This document shows positions 6,512-64,000 of a stretch of 64,000 bases of DNA, in pieces. How positions within the stretch are numbered: the first letter of the stretch is position 1; each line of letters opens with the position of its first letter. This stretch comes from Patescibacteria group bacterium (GTDB lineage Bacteria; Patescibacteriota; Minisyncoccia; Phycocordibacterales; JAKAEA01). The DNA is taken from assembly GCA_040387855.1 (NCBI GenBank), contig JAZKCY010000001.1, forward strand, positions 718,922-782,921. The letters are read 5' to 3'. The position numbers and the translations under genes are program-made. Under the pieces are notes generated by a model that was given only the letters and a program-made list of their open reading frames with translations, made no database searches and was not told the DNA's origin.

Positions 6512-7546
6512 AATATAGTTATATATATTTTTTATATCTTGCTTGAGCTCATCTGCAATATACAGATAATTATAAGGTTTAATTCTCTCTTCATATCTAA
6601 GTAATTTCTGCACAATATAAACTGTCGCAACTCCTAATACGAGCCCAGCAATAATATCGATGCCATAGTGTTGAATCGTAAATAGTGTCCCTAGCATATT
6701 TAAGATAAACCAAGGCACTAGAATATATCCTGAAGGCCTCCAAAGGCTCATAGCTGCATATAAAACGAGTATTGCCCATACAATGTGCATGCTTGGATTT
6801 GTGCTTACACTTAGCAATTTTCCAGCTGGATCAATCCAAAAACTGTCTATCTTGTCTATTTCTTGTGTGAGGTTCTCTGACAGCTTCATATTTTCTACTG
6901 AAGCCTGAATGTCAGAACTTATTGGCGCATTCAAAATATTTAATCTATACATTTCACTTGGAGCGATAGATGGCCATAATGCCCAGCATGCATACCCAAG
7001 TACATGTGAAATAAAAATACTTAAGATAAGTATTCTAAATACTTTCTTATTCATGCAGAATGCAAATACAAGAACTCCTAAGAGCAACAAAAATGCAGCA
7101 TGATATGAATACACTATAAGCATCTCTAAGAATACTGGATATGATATAGAGTGAATAAAAAAAGCTGGGTATACTCCAAATATCTTTTTATCAAGCATCA
7201 TGTACCAGTTACTTATTTCTGTAACTCTTTCAACAGATTGATGAGCAAATAAATAAAGAGTTGATAGTGCTAAAGTCACTAGTTCTAAAGACACAATACC
7301 TACAAGAACGATGCCACTCACAACTAGCTTCACAACAACATTATAAGAATGTTTATGCGCCACAAGCCATAAAGATTTTAAAACTACATAGCAGGCAATA
7401 CTCGCAATAAATACAGAGAGTAATACAATGAGATCGCCCGACAACGGTACCGTGTTTTTTGATCCATCAAAAAATATAAACAGTAAGAAAAGAACTGCGG
7501 GCACAACAATACAGTATAGTTCTAAGGGAAACTTACGTAACCACAT
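6500..7546 (-). CDS. PAP2-superfamily integral membrane protein (phosphatidic-acid-phosphatase / sphingolipid-phosphotransferase-like)
   Basis: The 348-aa polytopic product carries the PAP2 C2 and C3 motifs 'PSMH' and 'HYGIDIIAG'. Its 3' end overlaps the convergent upstream gene by 12 nt. Confidence 0.55.
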   Translation of the reverse strand: MWLRKFPLELYCIVVPAVLFLLFIFFDGSKNTVPLSGDLIVLLSVFIASIACYVVLKSLWLVAHKHSYNVVVKLVVSGIVLVGIVSLELVTLALSTLYLFAHQSVERVTEISNWYMMLDKKIFGVYPAFFIHSISYPVFLEMLIVYSYHAAFLLLLGVLVFAFCMNKKVFRILILSIFISHVLGYACWALWPSIAPSEMYRLNILNAPISSDIQASVENMKLSENLTQEIDKIDSFWIDPAGKLLSVSTNPSMHIVWAILVLYAAMSLWRPSGYILVPWFILNMLGTLFTIQHYGIDIIAGLVLGVATVYIVQKLLRYEERIKPYNYLYIADELKQDIKNIYNYILFK

Positions 7547-12128: not shown

Positions 12129-12210
12129 GGGCGAGTGGCGGAATTGGTATACGCGCTAGTCTTAGGAACTAGTTCCTCACGGATTGGGAGTTCGAGTCTC
12201 CCCTCGCCCA
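12129..12210 (+). tRNA. tRNA-Leu (anticodon TAG), type II
   Basis: Acceptor gggcgag/ctcgccc; anticodon stem ctagt/actag with loop ctTAGga; long variable arm; T-arm gggag-ttcgagt-ctccc; discriminator A. Confidence 0.85.
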
Positions 12211-12223
12211 CAGTCAAGCAAAG

Positions 12224-12307: not shown

Positions 12308-12375
12308 ACAGTCTGGTCCTTTGACAACCCAATCTACAACACAAACACCACGTAGTACGTGGAGAAAGGCACCCG

Positions 12376-13632
12376 ATGAACCCAGTTACACAACTGATCA
12401 TTGGTGGAGTGGCGTTCCTCGTGTGCGCCCTCCTCCTCGACATCCTCTGCGAAGAGGTGTGGAGGCCGCTCAAGCCCAAGTTCATGCGTTCGTTGTTTGG
12501 CCGTAAAAAGCGGAACGACGACGATGACAACAAGCCTCAGCACGATAGTGAGGTGAAGCGTTGGAGAAAGTTGAGGACTGCGTTTGCACTAACATTCGCA
12601 GCGATCTGCTTCTTCCTCCCCTTGTTCCTCATGCGACTTGCTCTACAAGACATCGACCCTCGGCTCAACCAGCTGATGGTGTTTGTGAGCTTGTACATCA
12701 TGTGGCATTTCGTGTCTGATGTCCTGCCGAAAATTAGCGTGTACGTGCCGGAAGGACAAGGACTCCTTACCCTCAACCAGTTCACGAAGAAGTTCGTCAT
12801 CTACGGACAGGGATTTAGCTTCCGTTTCCCTTGGGAGACGGTGCACGAGAAGAACCACATCTCGCTCCAGGACCTTACAATCCAGGTGCGCAAGATCAGC
12901 ATCCCCACCAAGGGTGCGAAAATCTACTTGTCGTTCCAGTTCAGCTGGAAGCCGCGTCTGAGCGACCTCGACGTGTTCTTCCAGATCGGTGGCAACATGG
13001 CTGAAGGAGTGTCGGAGAGGTTCCGCGCTATCTTCGAGGAGTTCTTTACCTCGCAGATTCGTCGGATACCTGCCGAAGTCGCTAGCAATGGGCAAATGAT
13101 CCTGAGCTGGTTGGCCCGGTCGGTGTTTGACATCGATCAAGACGAGATCAACCTTGATGACCCAAAAATCAGGAAGATCTACGAAAGGATGTCGAAGTAC
13201 GTCACCCTCGACGGCCAGCAAGGTGCGTTGAGGAATACCCGTCGTGCTCGTGAGCGCAAGTTCGGTGTCGACATGAATACCGTTGAGATAACGGACTTCG
13301 ATTTCGACAGGGATGTCCAAGAGGCACGGAACGCCATCGACATCCTTCGCAAGATGGGCCCGGCTATGCGAAAAAGCATGGGCATCAGTCAGGAGGCTTG
13401 GGAGAAGACCTATGTTAACCCTGACGATCCTGGCGCTCATCAGAGATACCTTGAGCTGTTTCAACAGTTTACGGTCATCACGAAGGACGCCAAGTCAACT
13501 ATCGTCGCAATCCAAGGCGGTAGTAATCAGGGTGATCCGCTGGTGCGAGCTGCTCTTGCAGAGCTTGCGGCCAAATCTCCCGATCCTGTGTTCCAAGCGG
13601 CGTTTGCCCAACTCTTGGCTGCAATGAAGTAA
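12376..13632 (+). CDS. SPFH/band-7 (flotillin/stomatin/HflKC-like) membrane protein, encoded in a high-GC island
   Basis: The 418-aa product has N-terminal TM helices. Its SPFH-like core reads 'VPEGQGLL...FVIYGQGFSFRFPW-ETVHEKNHISLQDLTIQVRKISIPTKGAKIYLSFQFSWKP', compared with the family pattern V.E.E.GVV.rfG..pGlhf.iP..d.v.kvd.R.q..d...q.v.TkD. A later stretch 'FGVDMNTVEITDFDFDRDVQEARNA' matches 'GIEV.sV.I.Di.pP.eVq.Af' and is followed by a helical tail. GC is about 55-58%, against about 38% in the flanks. Confidence 0.55.
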   Translation: MNPVTQLIIGGVAFLVCALLLDILCEEVWRPLKPKFMRSLFGRKKRNDDDDNKPQHDSEVKRWRKLRTAFALTFAAICFFLPLFLMRLALQDIDPRLNQLMVFVSLYIMWHFVSDVLPKISVYVPEGQGLLTLNQFTKKFVIYGQGFSFRFPWETVHEKNHISLQDLTIQVRKISIPTKGAKIYLSFQFSWKPRLSDLDVFFQIGGNMAEGVSERFRAIFEEFFTSQIRRIPAEVASNGQMILSWLARSVFDIDQDEINLDDPKIRKIYERMSKYVTLDGQQGALRNTRRARERKFGVDMNTVEITDFDFDRDVQEARNAIDILRKMGPAMRKSMGISQEAWEKTYVNPDDPGAHQRYLELFQQFTVITKDAKSTIVAIQGGSNQGDPLVRAALAELAAKSPDPVFQAAFAQLLAAMK

Positions 13633-13653
13633 CCTTTCTACAGGAGAAACATC

Positions 13654-14004
13654 ATGGCCAAGAATAAAGGCCAAGACAACAAGTCCGACGACAAGAAACC
13701 GGATGACAAGAAACCGGAACAGAAGAAGTCGCCGGAGCAGATCAACCAAGACGAGATGAAAAATCGCTCGTCAGCGTGGATGAAAGAAGGTCGCGAGAAC
13801 GGCACTAATGGATACAAAGAGTTCTACCCGCGAAATCGTCGCGGAGGATTCTACATCCTGCATGTCATTTTCGCGCTCTGGATCGTGTACGTGGTGATCC
13901 ACACCGCGCGCGAAGAGAAGTCCAAACCCAAGCTCAAACCCCAAGAAAGGAGTGTCCCGAAATGGACAGTAAACACAGCTGGATCGCCCTCCCTATCAGC
14001 GTGA
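13654..14004 (+). CDS. small hypothetical membrane protein (Lys/Asp-rich N-terminus, one TM helix)
   Basis: The 116-aa product lies in the island, is high-GC, and has the TM helix 'FYILHVIFALWIVYVVIHTA'. It is co-directional with the island's SPFH gene. Confidence 0.5.
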   Translation: MAKNKGQDNKSDDKKPDDKKPEQKKSPEQINQDEMKNRSSAWMKEGRENGTNGYKEFYPRNRRGGFYILHVIFALWIVYVVIHTAREEKSKPKLKPQERSVPKWTVNTAGSPSLSA

Positions 14005-14606
14005 TCGTCCTAGCGTTCATCCTCCGAGACTCAGTCTCTACGTTGGTGAACAAGTGGACGACACCCGTGAGGGAGCCGACGATGCAGGAGGCCGTCGACA
14101 AGTTCAATGCCGATAAGGCACGTATCGTGGCTGAGCAGCAAGCTGCCGCGAAAGCAACGGAAGCCATGAAGGCTTCCTTGCTCGGACCGGATTCAACGGC
14201 TTCATCGCCCACGAGTTCGACAACACCGAGCGGAACGCGGATCACACCGCCGCCCGTGTTCGTGTACCAGCCGGGCACAACGCCCGACTACCTACCCTGG
14301 CCAGATGGCAGGGCAGCGCTCATCGCCCCGAGCAGGTTCGATGGCCCACTTGAAGAAGTGAGCATGCGCGCACAAGACTACTACCCTGGCCTGCCTGCAG
14401 GTGTGGTCTACGATTGCGTGATTGTCGTAGAAACCGGAAAGCAAATCTGGATCTACGGCAATGGCTTCCGCGATTCGGCAGCTCATCGACTGCCGGCTCA
14501 TACCGACCTTAGCGGAAAGCCGCTACCGCGGTACCGGCTCATCGACATGATGTCGGTGAACGAGAGTCCCGTAAAGGTGACCCTCGAGTTCAACCGGAAG
14601 AAGTAG
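13962..14606 (+). CDS. hypothetical membrane-anchored protein (N-terminal signal-anchor, Ser/Thr/Pro-rich linker, C-terminal beta-rich domain)
   Basis: The 214-aa product has the N-terminus 'MDSKHSWIALPISVIVLAFIL'. It overlaps the preceding small ORF by 43 nt, so the start is uncertain. It is high-GC. Confidence 0.5.
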   Translation: MDSKHSWIALPISVIVLAFILRDSVSTLVNKWTTPVREPTMQEAVDKFNADKARIVAEQQAAAKATEAMKASLLGPDSTASSPTSSTTPSGTRITPPPVFVYQPGTTPDYLPWPDGRAALIAPSRFDGPLEEVSMRAQDYYPGLPAGVVYDCVIVVETGKQIWIYGNGFRDSAAHRLPAHTDLSGKPLPRYRLIDMMSVNESPVKVTLEFNRKK

Positions 14607-14658
14607 CCGTTGTAGATCGGGCGAAGCAGTTCATTGTGACTTCGGTCACACAAGCCAA

Positions 14659-14697
14659 GCGAGATTTCATTGTACGCAATGAGGTCTCGCTTTTTTA
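14659..14697 (+). terminator. rho-independent terminator closing the high-GC island
   Basis: A 14-bp stem gcgagatttcattg/caatgaggtctcgc (two G·U pairs) with loop tacg, followed by tttttt. A small UUCG-tetraloop hairpin 'tgtgacttcggtcaca' sits just upstream. Confidence 0.6.
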
Positions 14698-28990: not shown

Positions 28991-30217
28991 ATGCCACAAG
29001 TAAAACCCGAAGTTGAATCATTTGCACGTATAAAGGTAGTAGGTATTGGAGGTTCCGGAAAAAATGCTGTTAACCATATGATTAACTCTAAGGTTAAGGG
29101 TGTAGAATTCGTTGCTATCAACACCGATGCTCAAGACCTCCACAACTCTCTCGCAAAACGAAAGATCCACATTGGAAAAAATGTAACTCGAGGACTTGGT
29201 GCCGGTATGAACCCTGAGCTTGGAAAACGAGCTGCAGAAGAAACTAAAGAAGAGATCCAAGAAGCACTTAAGGGTGCTGATATGATCTTCCTTGCTGGAG
29301 GAAAAGGAGGAGGTACTGGAACAGGTGCTATGCCAGTGGTAGCAAAGGTAGCAAAAGAAATGGGAGCACTTACTGTTGCAGTGGTTACAAAGCCTTTCTT
29401 CTTTGAAGGACAGCAGCGAATGCGATTTGCAGAACAAGGTATTGAAGAACTCAAGAAATCAGTGGATGCTATTATCATCATCCCTAACGACAGAATTCTA
29501 AATACCATTGCGAAAGACACTACAGCAAAGCAAGCATTCATGCTCTGTGATGAAATCCTAAAGCAAGCGGTAGAAGGTATTTCTGATCTTATTACAACTC
29601 CTGGAGTTATCAACGTAGACTTCGCCGACATCCGAGCAATTCTCGACAATGCAGGTTCTGCTCTTATGGGTATCGGAATGGCTAGTGGTGAAAAGCGCGC
29701 AGAAGAAGCAGCAAAGGGAGCAATCAATTCTCCACTTCTCGATCTTTCAATCCACGGTGCGAAAGGAGTTCTCTTCTCAATTGCAGGTGGTGACGATCTA
29801 ACAATGTTTGAAATTCAGGATGCAGCTAAGATCATTACAGAATCTGTTGATCCAAATGCAAAGATTATTTTCGGTACAGTTCGAGATGAAAAGCTCAAGA
29901 AAAATGAACTTAAAGTAACTGTTATTGCTTCAGGTTTCCCAGAAGCAGGACGACGAGGAGTATTTCAAGAAACTGTAATACCTGCTCAGCGTGAAGTTCC
30001 TGTTTCAGAACCTGTAGTAGAACGAGTTCCTGAACGACAAGTTATTCCTCCAGCTCAAGAGCGAGGACGAATCTACAACAGTGTAACTCCAAATCCAATT
30101 AACCCAGTTAATAAGGATATGCGAGAAGCTCCAAAACCTGTTGATGAAAAGAAAAATAACGACGATGATGACTGGGGTGCAATTCCCGCTTTCCTCCGAA
30201 GATCAAAGATTAAATAA
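28991..30217 (+). CDS. ftsZ: cell division protein FtsZ
   Basis: 'IKVVGIGGSGKNAVNHMI' and the tubulin signature 'LAGGKGGGTGTGAMPVVA' are present; 408 aa. Confidence 0.95.
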   Translation: MPQVKPEVESFARIKVVGIGGSGKNAVNHMINSKVKGVEFVAINTDAQDLHNSLAKRKIHIGKNVTRGLGAGMNPELGKRAAEETKEEIQEALKGADMIFLAGGKGGGTGTGAMPVVAKVAKEMGALTVAVVTKPFFFEGQQRMRFAEQGIEELKKSVDAIIIIPNDRILNTIAKDTTAKQAFMLCDEILKQAVEGISDLITTPGVINVDFADIRAILDNAGSALMGIGMASGEKRAEEAAKGAINSPLLDLSIHGAKGVLFSIAGGDDLTMFEIQDAAKIITESVDPNAKIIFGTVRDEKLKKNELKVTVIASGFPEAGRRGVFQETVIPAQREVPVSEPVVERVPERQVIPPAQERGRIYNSVTPNPINPVNKDMREAPKPVDEKKNNDDDDWGAIPAFLRRSKIK

Positions 30218-30220
30218 AAC

Positions 30221-30253
30221 AAAAAGCTCTGACTAAACTTCAGGGCTTTTTTG
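30221..30253 (+). terminator. rho-independent terminator after ftsZ
   Basis: Stem agctctga/tcagggct followed by tttttt. Confidence 0.6.
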
Positions 30254-30257
30254 TTAC

Positions 30258-30285
30258 TTGATTTTATGAATATTTATGATATAAT
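30258..30285 (+). promoter_or_regulatory. candidate sigma70 promoter of a GC-rich orphan transcription unit
   Basis: -35 TTGATT at 30258-30263; 16-nt spacer; -10 TATAAT at 30280-30285. Confidence 0.45.
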
Positions 30286-30330
30286 AAATATGTACTTAGG
30301 TCTTTCCATACACTCACCCACGAGGTTGCC

Positions 30331-30558
30331 ATGATGATTCCCCAGTCGATCACGGTGCGAAGCCTCGCATGTGCTTCCATAGCAAAAGCTTGGTTTAGGT
30401 CTTGGCGTCGACGGGTTTGGACGGCTCGGCTAGACAGCGCACAACGAATGCTGTCTCACCTGTCAAAAGAACCTCCCGATCCCTTCACCGATCTGTCTCT
30501 CGAAACCTACGAGCGTAGAGCTAAGGTTGCGAGAGAGAAGATCGAGCACTGGAAGTAA
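30331..30558 (+). CDS. hypothetical 75-aa basic protein in a ~340-bp GC-rich patch (could instead be part of a structured ncRNA)
   Basis: GC is about 55%, against about 37% in the flanks. The patch is bounded by a promoter at 30258-30285 and a hairpin 'cccaccttcgcgaccgcgttggtggg' plus T-run at about 30598-30632. The product 'MMIPQSITVRSLACASIAKAWFRSWRRRVW...' has no recognisable family. Confidence 0.3.
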   Translation: MMIPQSITVRSLACASIAKAWFRSWRRRVWTARLDSAQRMLSHLSKEPPDPFTDLSLETYERRAKVAREKIEHWK

Positions 30559-30646
30559 GCCGCACACGTCCACGGCATATTGGACACAGCCCACCTTCGC
30601 GACCGCGTTGGTGGGCAAAACTTTTATACTTTGATATATAAGTGCT

Positions 30647-31591
30647 TTGTTATATACTATACAAACTATGACATACGATCTCGCAATCATTGGAGGAGGA
30701 CCAGCTGGAGTAGCTGCAGGTGTTTATGCTGCTCGAAAGCGCCTTAAGACCGTGCTCATTACCAATGACTTCCAAAATCAAAGTTCTGTTTCAGAGCATA
30801 TTCAAAATTGGATTGGAACTATTTCTATTTCTGGAACTGATCTTTCAAAAAACTTTGAAGCACATCTTGAAGCCTACAAGGGAGATGTTTTAGATATCAA
30901 AAAAGGTCATTGGACCAACTCAGTAGTTAAAGAAGGAAATGAGTTTGTAATCACCACAGATAAAGAAACCTTCCGAGCAAAAACTGTGCTTACTACCGTA
31001 GGAAGTCGAAGACGAAAACTTGAAGTTCCTGGTGCAGAAGAATTTGATAATAAAGGTCTTACCTATTGTGCATCATGTGATGGTCCCCTTTTTGCTGATA
31101 TGGATGTGGTAGTGCTTGGCGGAGGAAACGCAGCATTTGAATCTGCAGCTCAGCTTTTGGCATACTGCAAATCAGTAACCCTTCTTACTCGTAATGAATT
31201 TCGCGCAGATCAAATTACTGTTGATGCTCTTCTCAAGAATCCAAAATTCAAAGCTATTACCCATACTGATATTCTCGAAGTTAAGGGTGACAAGTTTGTA
31301 AATGGCATTGTGTATAAAAACAGAAATACTGGCGAGACTATTTCACTTCCTGTTTCCGGAATCTTTGTGGAAATCGGATTACTTCCAAATACTGATCTCA
31401 TGAAAGGTGTGGTAAATCTTGATACCTACGGACACATTGTTGTAGATCCTCGCACTCAGCGAACTTCTGTTGAAGGAATCTGGGCAGCTGGAGATTGTAC
31501 CGATGGTATCTATCATCAAAATAATATTGCGGCAGGAGATGCAGTGAAGGCTCTCGAAGATATTTATATCTATCTTCATCTCAAACGATAA
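30647..31591 (+). CDS. trxB: thioredoxin-disulfide reductase
   Basis: FAD site 'DLAIIGGGPAGVAAGVYAAR'; redox-active 'CASCDG'; NADPH site 'VVLGGGNAAFE'. Confidence 0.9.
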   Translation: MLYTIQTMTYDLAIIGGGPAGVAAGVYAARKRLKTVLITNDFQNQSSVSEHIQNWIGTISISGTDLSKNFEAHLEAYKGDVLDIKKGHWTNSVVKEGNEFVITTDKETFRAKTVLTTVGSRRRKLEVPGAEEFDNKGLTYCASCDGPLFADMDVVVLGGGNAAFESAAQLLAYCKSVTLLTRNEFRADQITVDALLKNPKFKAITHTDILEVKGDKFVNGIVYKNRNTGETISLPVSGIFVEIGLLPNTDLMKGVVNLDTYGHIVVDPRTQRTSVEGIWAAGDCTDGIYHQNNIAAGDAVKALEDIYIYLHLKR

Positions 31592-37524: not shown

Positions 37525-37597
37525 GGGCGGTTAGCTCAGTTGGTAGAGCGCAACATTGACGTTGTTGATGTCAGAGGTTCGAATCCTCTACCGCCCA
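37525..37597 (+). tRNA. tRNA-Val (anticodon GAC)
   Basis: Acceptor gggcggt/accgccc; anticodon stem caaca/tgttg with loop ttGACgt; T-arm agagg-ttcgaat-cctct; discriminator A. Confidence 0.85.
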
Positions 37598-37686
37598 CAA
37601 AATCTGTATTTGACTTATTTAATAATCTATTGTATTTTACTCCCAGTCTTGAACATCCTCGCAATGAATGAAAGGTAGGTACAACC

Positions 37687-38424
37687 ATGTCAGAACTACA
37701 ATTGTGGGAGTGGGCGCAAAAAAATAAGGCGCCCACAAATCCCTCCCCGCTTTACGAAGCAGTGCTCATCGCCACGGTGAAGCTGCCCGACGGACTTGGG
37801 GGGCTCTGCTTCGGAGTCATGCTAGCTAGTCGTGCCAACAACGGTGGTTCGATTACCACCTGCGCCCAAACGTTCCCAGAGGGCGAAAGTTACCAATACG
37901 CCTATGCTCGTATCTGGGAGCAAGTCCCGAAGGACGGGATAATGCTCCGTCCGATCAACAAGATCGTGCCGGCAACAACAACCACGCGGGGACCGAACAC
38001 GGGCCGCCTGCAGGTGCGTGAGTTCTTCGACGGACCGATTGAGCAGGTAGATTTAGCCGTTGCAACGGGAACTGATCGCGGAGGATTGGTTTCCGTGAAC
38101 GGATTCTCCCGCATTCCGCGATTCGAGCGGTGCGACATCGGTCTGTTTAAGGACATGCAGACCAATCCACAAACGGCACTCAACCTGGTAACGGGAAAGC
38201 GAGTGCCCTACGTGGGTCAGAGCGAGTTACAGCATGGATTCGTCACCCGTGCACTTGCCACACCATTCGAGGTTGCTCATCAAGGGGTTCCCTACCTCTA
38301 CGATGACGGATTGATTAGCATTTCAAAGGGCGAAGCATCGGTTGATCTACCAGCTGCTGGAAATCAACCTGCCCAAACGGTTTCGCTCACTGTCGGTGTA
38401 GCATTCGCTCCCGGCATTCGATAA
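37687..38424 (+). CDS. hypothetical protein (245 aa) encoded on a high-GC insert immediately 3' of tRNA-Val
   Basis: GC is about 55-57%, against about 38% in the flanks. The product 'MSELQLWEWAQKNKAPTNPSPLYEAVLIATVKLPDGLGG...' has no signal peptide, no TM helix and no family I can recognise. A terminator hairpin (accac-gtaaca-gtggt-ttttttt) follows at about 38431-38455. Confidence 0.5.
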   Translation: MSELQLWEWAQKNKAPTNPSPLYEAVLIATVKLPDGLGGLCFGVMLASRANNGGSITTCAQTFPEGESYQYAYARIWEQVPKDGIMLRPINKIVPATTTTRGPNTGRLQVREFFDGPIEQVDLAVATGTDRGGLVSVNGFSRIPRFERCDIGLFKDMQTNPQTALNLVTGKRVPYVGQSELQHGFVTRALATPFEVAHQGVPYLYDDGLISISKGEASVDLPAAGNQPAQTVSLTVGVAFAPGIR

Positions 38425-52116: not shown

Positions 52117-52123
52117 GATGTGT

Positions 52124-52421
52124 ATGCCTTGCATCGATAAGCCGAATTCTGTCGTGGATAATCATTTATCTGGGCCCACCCTTACGAGTGAGCTCAAGCG
52201 GCACTCCCAACTCAACCTTGCGGCTTCGTGGGCTCGGCCTTGCACCTAGGTAAGAATTTAGCCGTTTCACTCCCACTAAAGGGATTCGTCACTGTTCGCA
52301 TCTCGGTAGCTCGCATACAAGCTACGACGGGCGTTACCCGCTACCCTACTGCTCTTTCAAGCAAGTGTTCGGACTTTCCTCACCTCACCTTGCGATGAAG
52401 CGCGATTATCTAATGCAAGAT
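52124..52421 (-). ncRNA. rnpB: RNase P RNA (bacterial type A, compact ~300 nt)
   Basis: The reverse strand contains universally conserved blocks: '...GGUGAGGAAAGUCCGAACAC' (P4 5' strand, compare E. coli GGGGAGGAAAGUCCGGGCUCC); 'AGGGUAGCGGGUAACGCCCG' (compare AGGGCAGGUAACGCCUGGG); and 'CAGAUAAAUGAUUAUCCACGACAGAAUUCGGCUUAUCG' (compare CUAGAUGAAUGACUGUCCACGACAGAACCCGGCUUAUCGG). P1 is cuugcau/augcaag. A TTGATT-16-TATAAT promoter lies at 52428-52455 on the minus strand. Exact ends are ±5 nt. Confidence 0.88.
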
Positions 52422-61382: not shown

Positions 61383-64000
61383 CTATGAAAACATATCACC
61401 CACTTTAGTAGATACAAATTCCCACACTGCAGACCAAACTGAAGCAAACATGCTTGATCCTCGTCTTAAGAAGGCTTCACTTCCACCACCACCACCACCG
61501 CCACCTTGATTTCCATCGCCCGGAGGAGCTTCTTCTCCTGCTCCATCACCTCCTCCATTACCTCCACCAGTTTGCTCTCCATCACCTTCTGGAGCTGGAT
61601 CTCCAATAAACATTCCAGCGCCTGCTCCAGGCCCAGCATTTGCTCCAATTCTATAGTGAAATACCGGAGTTACTGAAACTAATGGAGTAATAGACGTATT
61701 TGATTCTTGTCCGACAGCAGTTACTGAAGATCTATTAACGGAAATTAAAATCTCGTCTGAAATTGCAATATTTGATACAGAAAGTTTCAAAAAATAATCT
61801 TTAACTGAATCAGAGGTAAATTGATTATTAAATGTAATACTTCCTTCATTTCCACTAACCAAAACTTCTCCAGCTTCAGCAACAACTGGTTCATCCTCAT
61901 TTAAGACTCCATCACTATTTGTATCTTGAACAATTTCTGCTGCAGTTATATCGCTACCAATAAACCCACGTAAAGATACTAAATTAAAAATAAGTCTATT
62001 GATAGAAATATCTTCATCTGTAGGTAACAGCTGAAACCGGAATAATGGCGAGCCTGAAATCGACGATACTCCTATGAATTGATCGGAGATCTGACCAATT
62101 GTATGATTTAAAATGGTAAGACTTCCAATAACTAGTGGTGCCATAGTATGAATTGCATTCGCAACACTTCCTGTTGCTGAAATTGTACTTCCACTAACCA
62201 CACCACTTTGAAAGATCTTAGAATTTGTTAATCCGACAGTCATCGTGTCGTCTTCTACCAAGTTTGATACAGTCCCATAAAGTATATATCCAAGATTTGC
62301 AACAGGAAGAGTGCTTGTTGCAGTAAAGGCAATCGTACCAGTGGATCCACCTATAGAAATAGTTGGTGAATTAAATACCACTTGATCACCTGAAAACTTA
62401 CGATACACAACGACATTAGTTGAGAGAGTATCATAGGCGCCAGCGTACACAACATTTCTTATCGAATCATATGCAAGTGCTTGTACTGAAGTGAGCGCAC
62501 TATCATGGCTTATTACCCAATCCCCTGAGGCATCACAACCTGATGAAGTTTCACAACTATATATTACACCCGTTTCTCCCGTTGCTGCATACATCACATT
62601 GTTTACAGAATCGAATACCAGACTATTTATATTACTATTTGAAGTATCATAACTCGTTGTCCAATCCTCTGATGCGTCACAACTTGTTGACAGAGCACAA
62701 CGATAAATAATTCCACCAGTACCTGATCCTGCATACAGGATTCTATTTTCTGTATCTATAGACAATGTGTAAATATCTGACTCAGGTGAATCAAAACTTG
62801 TTGTCCATTCCAATGCAGCATCACATCCTGTTGATGTCTCGCAGCGATACACTAATCCATTACTTCCTGTACTTGCATAGATTATATTTGATACGCTATC
62901 AACCACAAAATCATAAATTGATGATTCCGTTGAATCATAACCACCGCCAAGTTGCCAATCTATCATTGCATCGCAACCTGTACTTGTATTACATCGAAGG
63001 ATATACCCCTGACTTCCAGTACCCGCATATAAAACTCCATTTGCCGCATCAAAACCAAAGCTGTAAATAGTACTATCAGCTGTATCGTAGCTTGTCGTCC
63101 AATCACCTGAAGCATCACAACTCGTTGATAGTGCACATCGATAAATAATCCCTCCCGTACCAGAACCTGCATAGAGAACATTGTTTGTCGTATCGATAAT
63201 TAAAGAGTTGATTGTTGATTCAGTTGAATCAAGACTCGTTGTCCAATCACCTGAAGCATCACAACCTGATGAAGCTACACATCTATAGATACGACCATTT
63301 GCACCTCCCGTATAGATAACTCTATTTCTTTCATCAAAAATTATAGTTTCAATAGTACTATCCGTAGTATTACTATAGCCAGTAGACCATGACGTTGCAG
63401 CTGAAATAGAACCGTCATTATTGAGGTCTGAATATACTACAAAATCCGTCATGTCTGAATCTGAAATACCTGAAACTGATGATAAATCAAACGTAAGTGT
63501 CGTTGACGCTCTTTCTCCCAAAGTGTTGAGATTGAATCTAAAAAATCGTGTTGTTGTTGCTGTAGAACCTGCTAAAAATTTATTTGTCACCTGACTGCTC
63601 GAATGACTGGAAAGGATACTACCTCCTATGAGGCTTACTGTTTGAGTATCACTTACATCTGAAGAACTATCTGTCGGTCCATCTGTGAATAACTTCAATG
63701 CCCCAGCACCTGAATATGCAACACCTGTAAAATTCGTATATGATAGGCCGGAAATGATTATAGTTTCAAGGGCAAAATTTGAAGTCACATCAATAACTAA
63801 AACACTTCCCCCACCTTCATAACTCACCGTAGTTGAAACTTTTGAAGATCCAGTACCTGAGATTGTTGCTGTAGTATCTGTAGTATCCCAAAGGTACGTA
63901 AATCCTGTTGTAGTTGCGATAGCAATTCGGATGTTATTGGTTGCTGTTAGTGCACTACCACCAACAAGCGTAATTGGCGAAATAGGAGTAGAAGCTTGCC
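61383..64000 (-). CDS. very large secreted/cell-surface protein with about 8 tandem 48-aa Cys-containing beta-propeller-like repeats and a Gly-rich C-terminal tail; the 5' end lies beyond the window
   Basis: The reading frame is open on the minus strand from 61383 to the window edge. The listed start at 63827 is a GTG with no upstream stop. The repeats have the form '(I/V)YRC.xS.GCDA..DWTTS.DS.ES.I.S...D..N..LYAG.G..G'. A Gly/Asp tail 'GGGNGGGDGAGEEAPPGDGNQGGGGGGGG' is followed by a hydrophobic C-terminus 'VWSAVWEFVSTKVGDMFS'. Confidence 0.75.
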   Translation of the reverse strand, partial: QASTPISPITLVGGSALTATNNIRIAIATTTGFTYLWDTTDTTATISGTGSSKVSTTVSYEGGGSVLVIDVTSNFALETIIISGLSYTNFTGVAYSGAGALKLFTDGPTDSSSDVSDTQTVSLIGGSILSSHSSSQVTNKFLAGSTATTTRFFRFNLNTLGERASTTLTFDLSSVSGISDSDMTDFVVYSDLNNDGSISAATSWSTGYSNTTDSTIETIIFDERNRVIYTGGANGRIYRCVASSGCDASGDWTTSLDSTESTINSLIIDTTNNVLYAGSGTGGIIYRCALSTSCDASGDWTTSYDTADSTIYSFGFDAANGVLYAGTGSQGYILRCNTSTGCDAMIDWQLGGGYDSTESSIYDFVVDSVSNIIYASTGSNGLVYRCETSTGCDAALEWTTSFDSPESDIYTLSIDTENRILYAGSGTGGIIYRCALSTSCDASEDWTTSYDTSNSNINSLVFDSVNNVMYAATGETGVIYSCETSSGCDASGDWVISHDSALTSVQALAYDSIRNVVYAGAYDTLSTNVVVYRKFSGDQVVFNSPTISIGGSTGTIAFTATSTLPVANLGYILYGTVSNLVEDDTMTVGLTNSKIFQSGVVSGSTISATGSVANAIHTMAPLVIGSLTILNHTIGQISDQFIGVSSISGSPLFRFQLLPTDEDISINRLIFNLVSLRGFIGSDITAAEIVQDTNSDGVLNEDEPVVAEAGEVLVSGNEGSITFNNQFTSDSVKDYFLKLSVSNIAISDEILISVNRSSVTAVGQESNTSITPLVSVTPVFHYRIGANAGPGAGAGMFIGDPAPEGDGEQTGGGNGGGDGAGEEAPPGDGNQGGGGGGGGSEAFLRRGSSMFASVWSAVWEFVSTKVGDMFS
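61460..61625. repeat. low-complexity GGN/GGT codon repeat (encoded poly-Gly tract)
   Basis: The + strand reads '...ccaccaccaccaccaccgccaccttg...' at about 61489-61511 and is GGx-rich on either side. It encodes the Gly-rich C-terminal tail. Confidence 0.6.
62420..63250. repeat. about 8 tandem ~144-bp intragenic repeats
   Basis: The protein repeat 'YRCxxSxGCDAxxDW...LYAGxGxxG' recurs about 8 times across this stretch of the 61383..64000 gene. Confidence 0.6.

Follow-up and report, generated by a model that had tools for sequence, protein, structure and literature searches.

The ftsZ gene of the Patescibacteria contig investigated here is separated from the downstream trxB gene by an AT-rich spacer, in which a short GC-rich block is embedded. 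All positions given below refer to the window, that is, the whole 64-kb stretch of DNA that was analysed. Judged by a retrieval of related loci with FtsZ, the organism is a Paceibacteria/Parcubacteria-type Patescibacterium with Taylorbacteria- and Zambryskibacteria-like neighbours; the closest FtsZ protein on record is 89% identical, the closest one among genome representatives 85%. The following features make up the junction:

28991–30217, plus strand: ftsZ (408 aa), the conserved upstream neighbour (ORF; 85–89% identity to Patescibacteria FtsZ, Tubulin/FtsZ_C domains)
30221–30251, plus strand: native intrinsic terminator of ftsZ (terminator scan; 12-bp stem and T-run)
30258–30285, plus strand: sigma-70-like promoter P1, TTGATT-16-TATAAT with TG extension (10 of 12 consensus matches; AT-rich and host-like)
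30301–30625, no strand assigned: GC-rich block of foreign composition, very probably a lineage-specific insertion (composition; comparison with related loci)
30322–30325, plus strand: Shine-Dalgarno-like GAGG (read from the sequence), with a spacing of 5 nt to the ATG at 30331 and of 8 nt to that at 30334
30331–30558, plus strand: ORF75, a basic orphan ORF of 75 (or 74) aa with two predicted helices (ORF list)
30496–30536, plus strand: internal hairpin in the 3' part of ORF75, 13-bp arms with 92% complementarity, -19.8 kcal/mol (fold)
30570–30587, plus strand: small hairpin GTCCA-N8-TGGAC in the 3' UTR (sequence and fold)
30589–30628, plus strand: terminal GC-clamp hairpin (stem 30589–30616, -21.4 kcal/mol) followed by AAAACTTTTAT, a candidate weak terminator or 3' stabiliser
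30631–30658, plus strand: putative native trxB promoter P2, TTGATA-16-TATACT (consensus match), preceding the trxB ATG at 30668
30668–31591, plus strand: trxB (thioredoxin reductase-like, 307 aa), the conserved downstream neighbour (tblastn synteny)

The block has a GC content of 54.5% across its 325 bases, in agreement with the roughly 55% given in an initial annotation of this DNA. The mean of the window is 39% and the flanking spacers have 20–25%, and the GC jump at the borders of the block is sharp. Windows of 325 nt that are this GC-rich make up 1.6% of the 64 kb; the remaining ones correspond to tRNAs, the RNase P RNA, a Gly/Pro-rich coding tract and two larger islands. The GC-rich patch at 61426–61650 on the minus strand corresponds to Gly/Pro-rich low-complexity sequence close to the C-terminal end of an ORF of 814 aa (61383–63827, minus strand) and is not an island. 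The RNase P RNA, already placed at 52.1–52.4 kb by the initial annotation, was recovered by Rfam at 52122–52421 on the minus strand (bacterial class A, 121.6 bits). It comprises 300 nt compared to 367 nt of the model, with several helices truncated or missing; one 43-nt segment of the model is reduced to 5 nt, and internal deletions occur at other places too.

Gene order at the junction was compared over a large set of relatives. In 70 out of 80 related loci trxB is found 3' of ftsZ, with a spacer of 0–150 bp in about 45 of them. The trxB gene of the window shows 53–73% identity (tblastn) to the gene immediately 3' of ftsZ in most of these 80 relatives, and Pyr_redox_2 domains are present on its homologues. 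Among the seven closest relatives (FtsZ identity 85–89%) trxB follows directly in four, after a spacer of 0–70 bp, and a minus-strand gene follows ftsZ in the other three:

L082, FtsZ 89%: 59-bp spacer, then trxB
L087, FtsZ 86%: 23-bp spacer, then trxB
L001, FtsZ 85%: 0-bp spacer, then trxB
L002, FtsZ 85%: 70-bp spacer, then trxB
L085, FtsZ 87%: minus-strand cytidylate-kinase-like gene after ftsZ
L086, FtsZ 87%: minus-strand cytidylate-kinase-like gene after ftsZ
L088, FtsZ 87%: minus-strand gene after ftsZ, interrupted by the contig end

Searches with blastn, tblastn and nhmmer yielded no similarity to the block in any of 88 related loci, the closest seven included. Since the flanks are conserved, the block is very probably a lineage-specific insertion. 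Both of its sides keep the native signals, as seen by comparison with L002 and L082: equivalents of the ftsZ terminator at 30221–30251 are located 3' of ftsZ also in these two loci, and the -10 box and leader of trxB, TATACTA..ACTATGACATACGAT, are conserved with both. Across the Paceibacteria relatives (L001–L088) the spacers between ftsZ and trxB range from 0 to 3.3 kb, and the cargo found there in other lineages includes a 23S_rRNA_IVP four-helix-bundle protein, DUF559, a sortase, a cytidylate-kinase-like protein, orphans and non-coding hairpin-rich spacers. In Paceibacteria the ftsZ|trxB junction accommodates variable cargo. In one of these loci, L023, the spacer (7131–7487) is non-coding, 355 bp long and contains two long-range inverted repeats.

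The 75-aa basic ORF mentioned in the initial annotation is present within the block. Its start codon is the first AUG of the predicted transcript, and the ORF takes up two-thirds of that transcript. Its product would have a pI of 10.55, contains neither Gly nor Asn and has a first helix rich in Arg and Trp; AlphaFold2, given the single sequence, predicts with moderate confidence a helix-linker-helix arrangement (helices 8–45 and 57–74; pLDDT 71, pTM 0.32). The same annotation had seen no convincing Shine-Dalgarno (SD) sequence. This is wrong, as GAGG precedes both possible start codons, and a small protein gene thereby becomes more likely. Among dinucleotide-shuffled versions of the transcript, an ATG-initiated ORF of at least 75 aa occurred in 5.3% of cases in any frame and in 2.7% on the plus strand, and such an ORF together with an SD motif on the plus strand in 0.34%; these ORF and SD statistics are post hoc. 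The GC content of the three codon positions is flat (GC1/GC2/GC3 0.53/0.52/0.56). Under codon parameters derived from the other islands, the frame of ORF75 scores best of the six, but its value of -0.09 is lower than that of any in-frame chunk from these islands (mean 0.27, sd 0.11). The 13-bp hairpin inside the ORF likewise speaks against a coding sequence.

An SD motif (GGAG, GAGG or AGGA) was found 5' of the start in only 4 out of 49 native genes (49 long ORFs of the 64-kb window), and many native genes have a TATAAT or TATACT box just 10–17 nt before the start codon. This pattern suggests short-leader or leaderless, SD-independent initiation for the native genes. All ORFs of the GC-rich islands (starting at 12376, 13654, 13962 and 37687) are preceded by an SD-like motif, as is ORF75.

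The first of these islands, 12326–14675 with up to 66% GC, is located directly 3' of a tRNA-Leu(tag) gene (12129–12211) and looks like a classical tRNA-adjacent integration. Its ORFs code for a 418-aa SPFH/Band-7 domain protein (12376–13632) and two orphans (13654–14004 and 13962–14606), each of them preceded by an SD motif, and the end of the island is formed by a strong terminator (about 14658–14697). No relatives of this island were found in PHROG, PADLOC and viral-contig searches. The segment 14401–14700 (plus strand), which covers the 3' end of a 214-aa island ORF and the terminator, has the most extreme folding z-score of the 64 kb, -7.2. The second island, 37651–38350 with up to 60% GC, lies directly 3' of a tRNA-Val(gac) gene (37525–37598). 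It holds a 245-aa orphan ORF (37687–38424) with an SD-like AAGGTAGG motif, for which Pfam, PHROG, PADLOC and viral searches returned no relatives, and the RNA of 37700–37999 folds with unusual stability (z = -5.1).

Downstream of ORF75, the hairpin GCCCACC...GGTGGGC (30589–30616) exceeds 98% of shuffles in stability. The initial annotation had described it as a GC-clamp hairpin plus U-run. The stem exists as described; the U-run does not adjoin it, TTTT following only 5 nt 3' of the stem with AAAAC in between (AAAAC-TTTTAT). Because of this offset the terminator scan made no call at 30589–30628, and the element may be regarded as a weak intrinsic terminator at best. The smaller hairpin gtcca-cggcatat-tggac was confirmed directly upstream of it, and a second strong one, at 30496–30536, had been absent from the earlier description.

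For the predicted transcript 30292–30632 (plus strand) a folding energy of -121.7 kcal/mol was obtained, with z = -3.6; the opposite strand has z = -1.9, and the block has about -2.4 when the terminal hairpin is left out. The background for these values is formed by 214 windows of 300 nt from the 64-kb window (mean -0.42, sd 1.44, 5th percentile -3.0). Other GC-rich, ORF-bearing islands reach z-scores between -1.6 and -5.3, several of them stronger (-3.2 to -5.3) than the block, and the RNase P RNA, scored identically, has -2.2. The values for the block, the coding islands and a genuine structured RNA thus overlap, so that thermodynamics is unable to separate RNA from mRNA here, and the z-score was dropped as a discriminator between the two. 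The folding check that had been proposed for this locus gives a moderate stability (z from -2.4 to -3.6), within the range of the GC-rich coding islands.

These data bear directly on the possibility that the block is a novel, horizontally acquired structured ncRNA of about 300–340 nt, or a dual-function RNA, which extends from P1 to the terminal hairpin and contains the ORF only incidentally. The strand bias of the z-score for the whole transcript is in agreement with such an RNA, as are the two unusually stable local hairpins, the flat GC content over the codon positions and the sub-coding codon score. Moreover, other short GC-rich spots of similar size in this AT-rich genome are RNAs, namely tRNAs and the RNase P RNA. 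However, without the terminator the z-score lies inside the ordinary range of 300-nt windows and is weaker than that of several coding islands, and the combination of a first-AUG ORF with an SD motif is rare in the shuffles. Against Rfam 15 the block had no match at the gathering thresholds, under which the RNase P RNA and nine tRNAs were found elsewhere in the window. At E<=10, a search of 30150–30720 returned only terminator look-alikes on the ftsZ terminator and noise. The sole match inside the block at this level, mir-3099, was rejected as noise with 15 bits compared to a threshold of 95. Also ARAGORN detected no tmRNA; the initial annotation had likewise been unable to match the element by eye to tmRNA, SRP RNA or 6S RNA. 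Since no homologues exist among the sequences searched, a covariation signal is not obtainable, and the block is conserved in no relative. The positive evidence for an RNA gene thus consists of moderate foldability and nothing beyond. We consider an ncRNA of this kind unlikely. The more specific version, an RNA of about 330 nt, structured or also encoding the 75-aa peptide, which was acquired horizontally, captured a host promoter and would represent a new class with one sequence, is quite improbable. Of the two options offered by the initial annotation, an ncRNA or a small foreign high-GC gene, the small high-GC acquisition is the better supported one: the foreign character is borne out by the absence from 88 loci and by an SD motif like that of the other islands, and the ncRNA part is neither supported nor excluded.

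The search for relatives of the block and of its product remained negative throughout. ORF75 had no matches in Pfam, NCBIfam, PHROGs, PADLOC and the PDB sequences, and a word-indexed search over 5.8 billion clusters found no homologue. Two HMMER matches among 1.84 billion representatives were discarded as artefacts, as they are tandem-repeat proteins which sum up a weak motif over 5–8 repeats. In all six frames no protein homologue of the block was detected in three protein databases, and a six-frame chimeric query for a frameshifted pseudogene gave nothing at E<=10. With ORF75 lacking homologues, purifying selection on it cannot be shown. At the DNA level, plasmids and phages (blastn, tblastn) as well as viral contigs (protein patterns, exact hairpin strings) contained no match, and neither a homologous sequence nor a donor was found in the genome and metagenome collections searched. 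The sole match of a metagenome scan, CASIAKAWFR in locus L081, belongs to a contig with 65% GC and falls off-frame within a real gene that neighbours a transposase. It had been picked by the search pattern itself, nhmmer detected no similarity of the DNA, and it is a chance match; this example illustrates that a pattern-based locus search can yield off-frame false positives. In the same locus (86–1800) a 112-aa ORF overlaps a 459-aa transposase-like ORF by 4 nt (ATGA).

Signatures of mobility were not found at the block either: terminal inverted repeats (TIR), target-site duplications (TSD), attC sites, a nearby tRNA and an integrase are all missing. Neither the 64-kb window nor the related loci contain a second copy. 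There are no inverted repeats of at least 7 nt between the borders, as a MITE or IS element would have, and neither of the attC core motifs RYYYAAC and GTTRRRY occurs on either strand within 30286–30660. The only flanking direct repeats are 7-nt AT-rich ones which coincide with the -10 motif.

A second way to read this locus, likewise improbable, is that of passenger DNA without function, the decaying remnant of a larger foreign insertion, in which ORF, promoter match and hairpins are fortuitous. The slot is indeed highly plastic, with 0 to 3.3 kb of unrelated cargo and hairpin-rich non-coding spacers such as that in L023, promoter-like hexamers are frequent in AT-rich spacers, an ORF of 75 aa arises in about 5% of shuffles, and the six-frame search found no homologue. 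Yet the layout is that of a complete gene, from the promoter via the SD motif and the first-AUG ORF with its stop codon to the hairpin, and the SD motif is common to the ORFs of the islands and not to the native genes. The pseudogene search revealed no truncated or frame-shifted similarity to known proteins, hence no mark of a pseudogene, and streamlined genomes with near-zero spacers would be expected to purge useless DNA.

With regard to transcription, the site TTGATT-16-TATAAT, called a good promoter in the initial annotation, is present with its TG extension. It has to be read as a consensus match only, since a scan of 1.1 kb gave 5 such sites versus 1.8 +/- 1.7 expected. The P1 sequence TGATATAAT is similar to TGATATACT, the extended -10 box 5' of trxB in L002 and L082, and P1 may derive from a native promoter that was captured or duplicated. 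A target duplication is not demonstrable from P1 and P2, since their sole common part is the 7-nt -10 motif TGATATA. The similarity to the trxB promoter of the relatives is also compatible with the block being a cis-acting 5' leader or an extra promoter module of trxB, where transcripts read through from P1 and a structured leader modulates expression. Block and trxB are on the same strand, and without a U-run adjoining the terminal hairpin a read-through into trxB is plausible. However, trxB has retained its own conserved promoter and short leader 3' of the hairpin, no relative possesses such a leader, no riboswitch or leader family was matched, and the foreign composition speaks against an evolved regulatory element. 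We therefore regard a role as trxB leader as very unlikely.

An equally slight chance is left for a chimeric join of a fragment from a higher-GC organism into the Patescibacteria contig, for the window probably stems from a metagenome-assembled genome, its FtsZ, FtsA and TrxB had no exact match on record in the collections searched, and relatives of the block turned up in none of the collections, but both flanks run seamlessly into syntenic host genes within 100 bp, an internal join of 325 bp requires two independent misjoins, and the other GC-rich islands of the window are at classical tRNA-adjacent integration sites.

Considering the composition of the block, its anatomy, its status as an insertion and its lack of relatives together with the translation signals, we propose that it is a small foreign orphan gene cassette, a reading to which we assign a probability of about one half. 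According to this proposal, about 325 bp of GC-rich foreign DNA would have been acquired recently and in this lineage only, and would have been inserted at the junction between ftsZ and trxB; together with the AT-rich promoter it would form a unit of about 370 bp. Its layout would be monocistronic. Transcription would start from the host-type sigma-70 promoter P1, and a leader of about 39 nt would lead to the GAGG ribosome-binding site. From the first AUG, the ORF would then specify a basic protein of 74–75 aa (pI 10.6) with two predicted helices, in which an amphipathic helix rich in Arg and Trp is connected by a Pro-rich linker to a charged helix. The stable hairpin, serving weak termination and/or protection of the 3' end, would close a 3' UTR of about 60 nt, and trxB would retain its own promoter 3' of the cassette. 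In this reading ORF75 would be translated, and the donor presumably was an SD-using organism or mobile element with a higher GC content. The Arg/Trp-rich helix, as the only indication, suggests that the protein may be a small accessory factor that binds nucleic acids or membranes.

If expressed, the cassette would be a clean example of how the streamlined, ultra-small Patescibacteria wire in tiny foreign genes: a foreign, GC-rich and SD-bearing coding sequence would have come under a host-type promoter, with the native genes of this genome apparently lacking SD motifs. Furthermore, the locus points to the ftsZ|trxB junction as a site where cargo recurs in this clade. As a single-copy orphan without relatives, it is not assignable to a function and opens no broader question alone.

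Among known systems, RNAIII and SgrS represent bacterial sRNA or dual-function RNA genes. The block is similar to these in being a stand-alone intergenic unit of a few hundred nt with stable hairpins and an embedded small ORF. In contrast to them it could be placed in no family, is not conserved and has no target assigned to it; ORF75 occupies two-thirds of its transcript, and it is no more stable than GC-rich coding sequence from the same genome.

The morons of lambdoid phages are self-contained units of promoter, ORF and terminator that deviate in GC content and have been inserted between two adjacent, conserved genes. With its own promoter, a single small ORF, a terminal hairpin and deviant GC the block is built alike, and it sits precisely between two genes that are neighbours in the relatives. 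Unlike a moron, it is located not in a prophage but in a cellular chromosome between housekeeping genes (ftsA, ftsZ, trxB), and no similarity to PHROG, phage and viral-contig sequences places it in a phage context.

Islands acquired by horizontal gene transfer have been documented as common in Patescibacteria (PMC12455944). Compared to the ORFan islets described there, the block is far smaller, with a single 75-codon ORF, and it lacks mobility signatures such as a tRNA, an integrase or repeats as well as an identified donor. It shares with these islets the deviant composition, the absence from close relatives despite conserved flanks, the homologue-less small gene and the presence of several islands within the same 64-kb window. 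As such islands are frequent in this group, the block belongs to a known type and not to a new kind of element. Most likely, it is an ordinary small horizontal acquisition rather than a new class of RNA.
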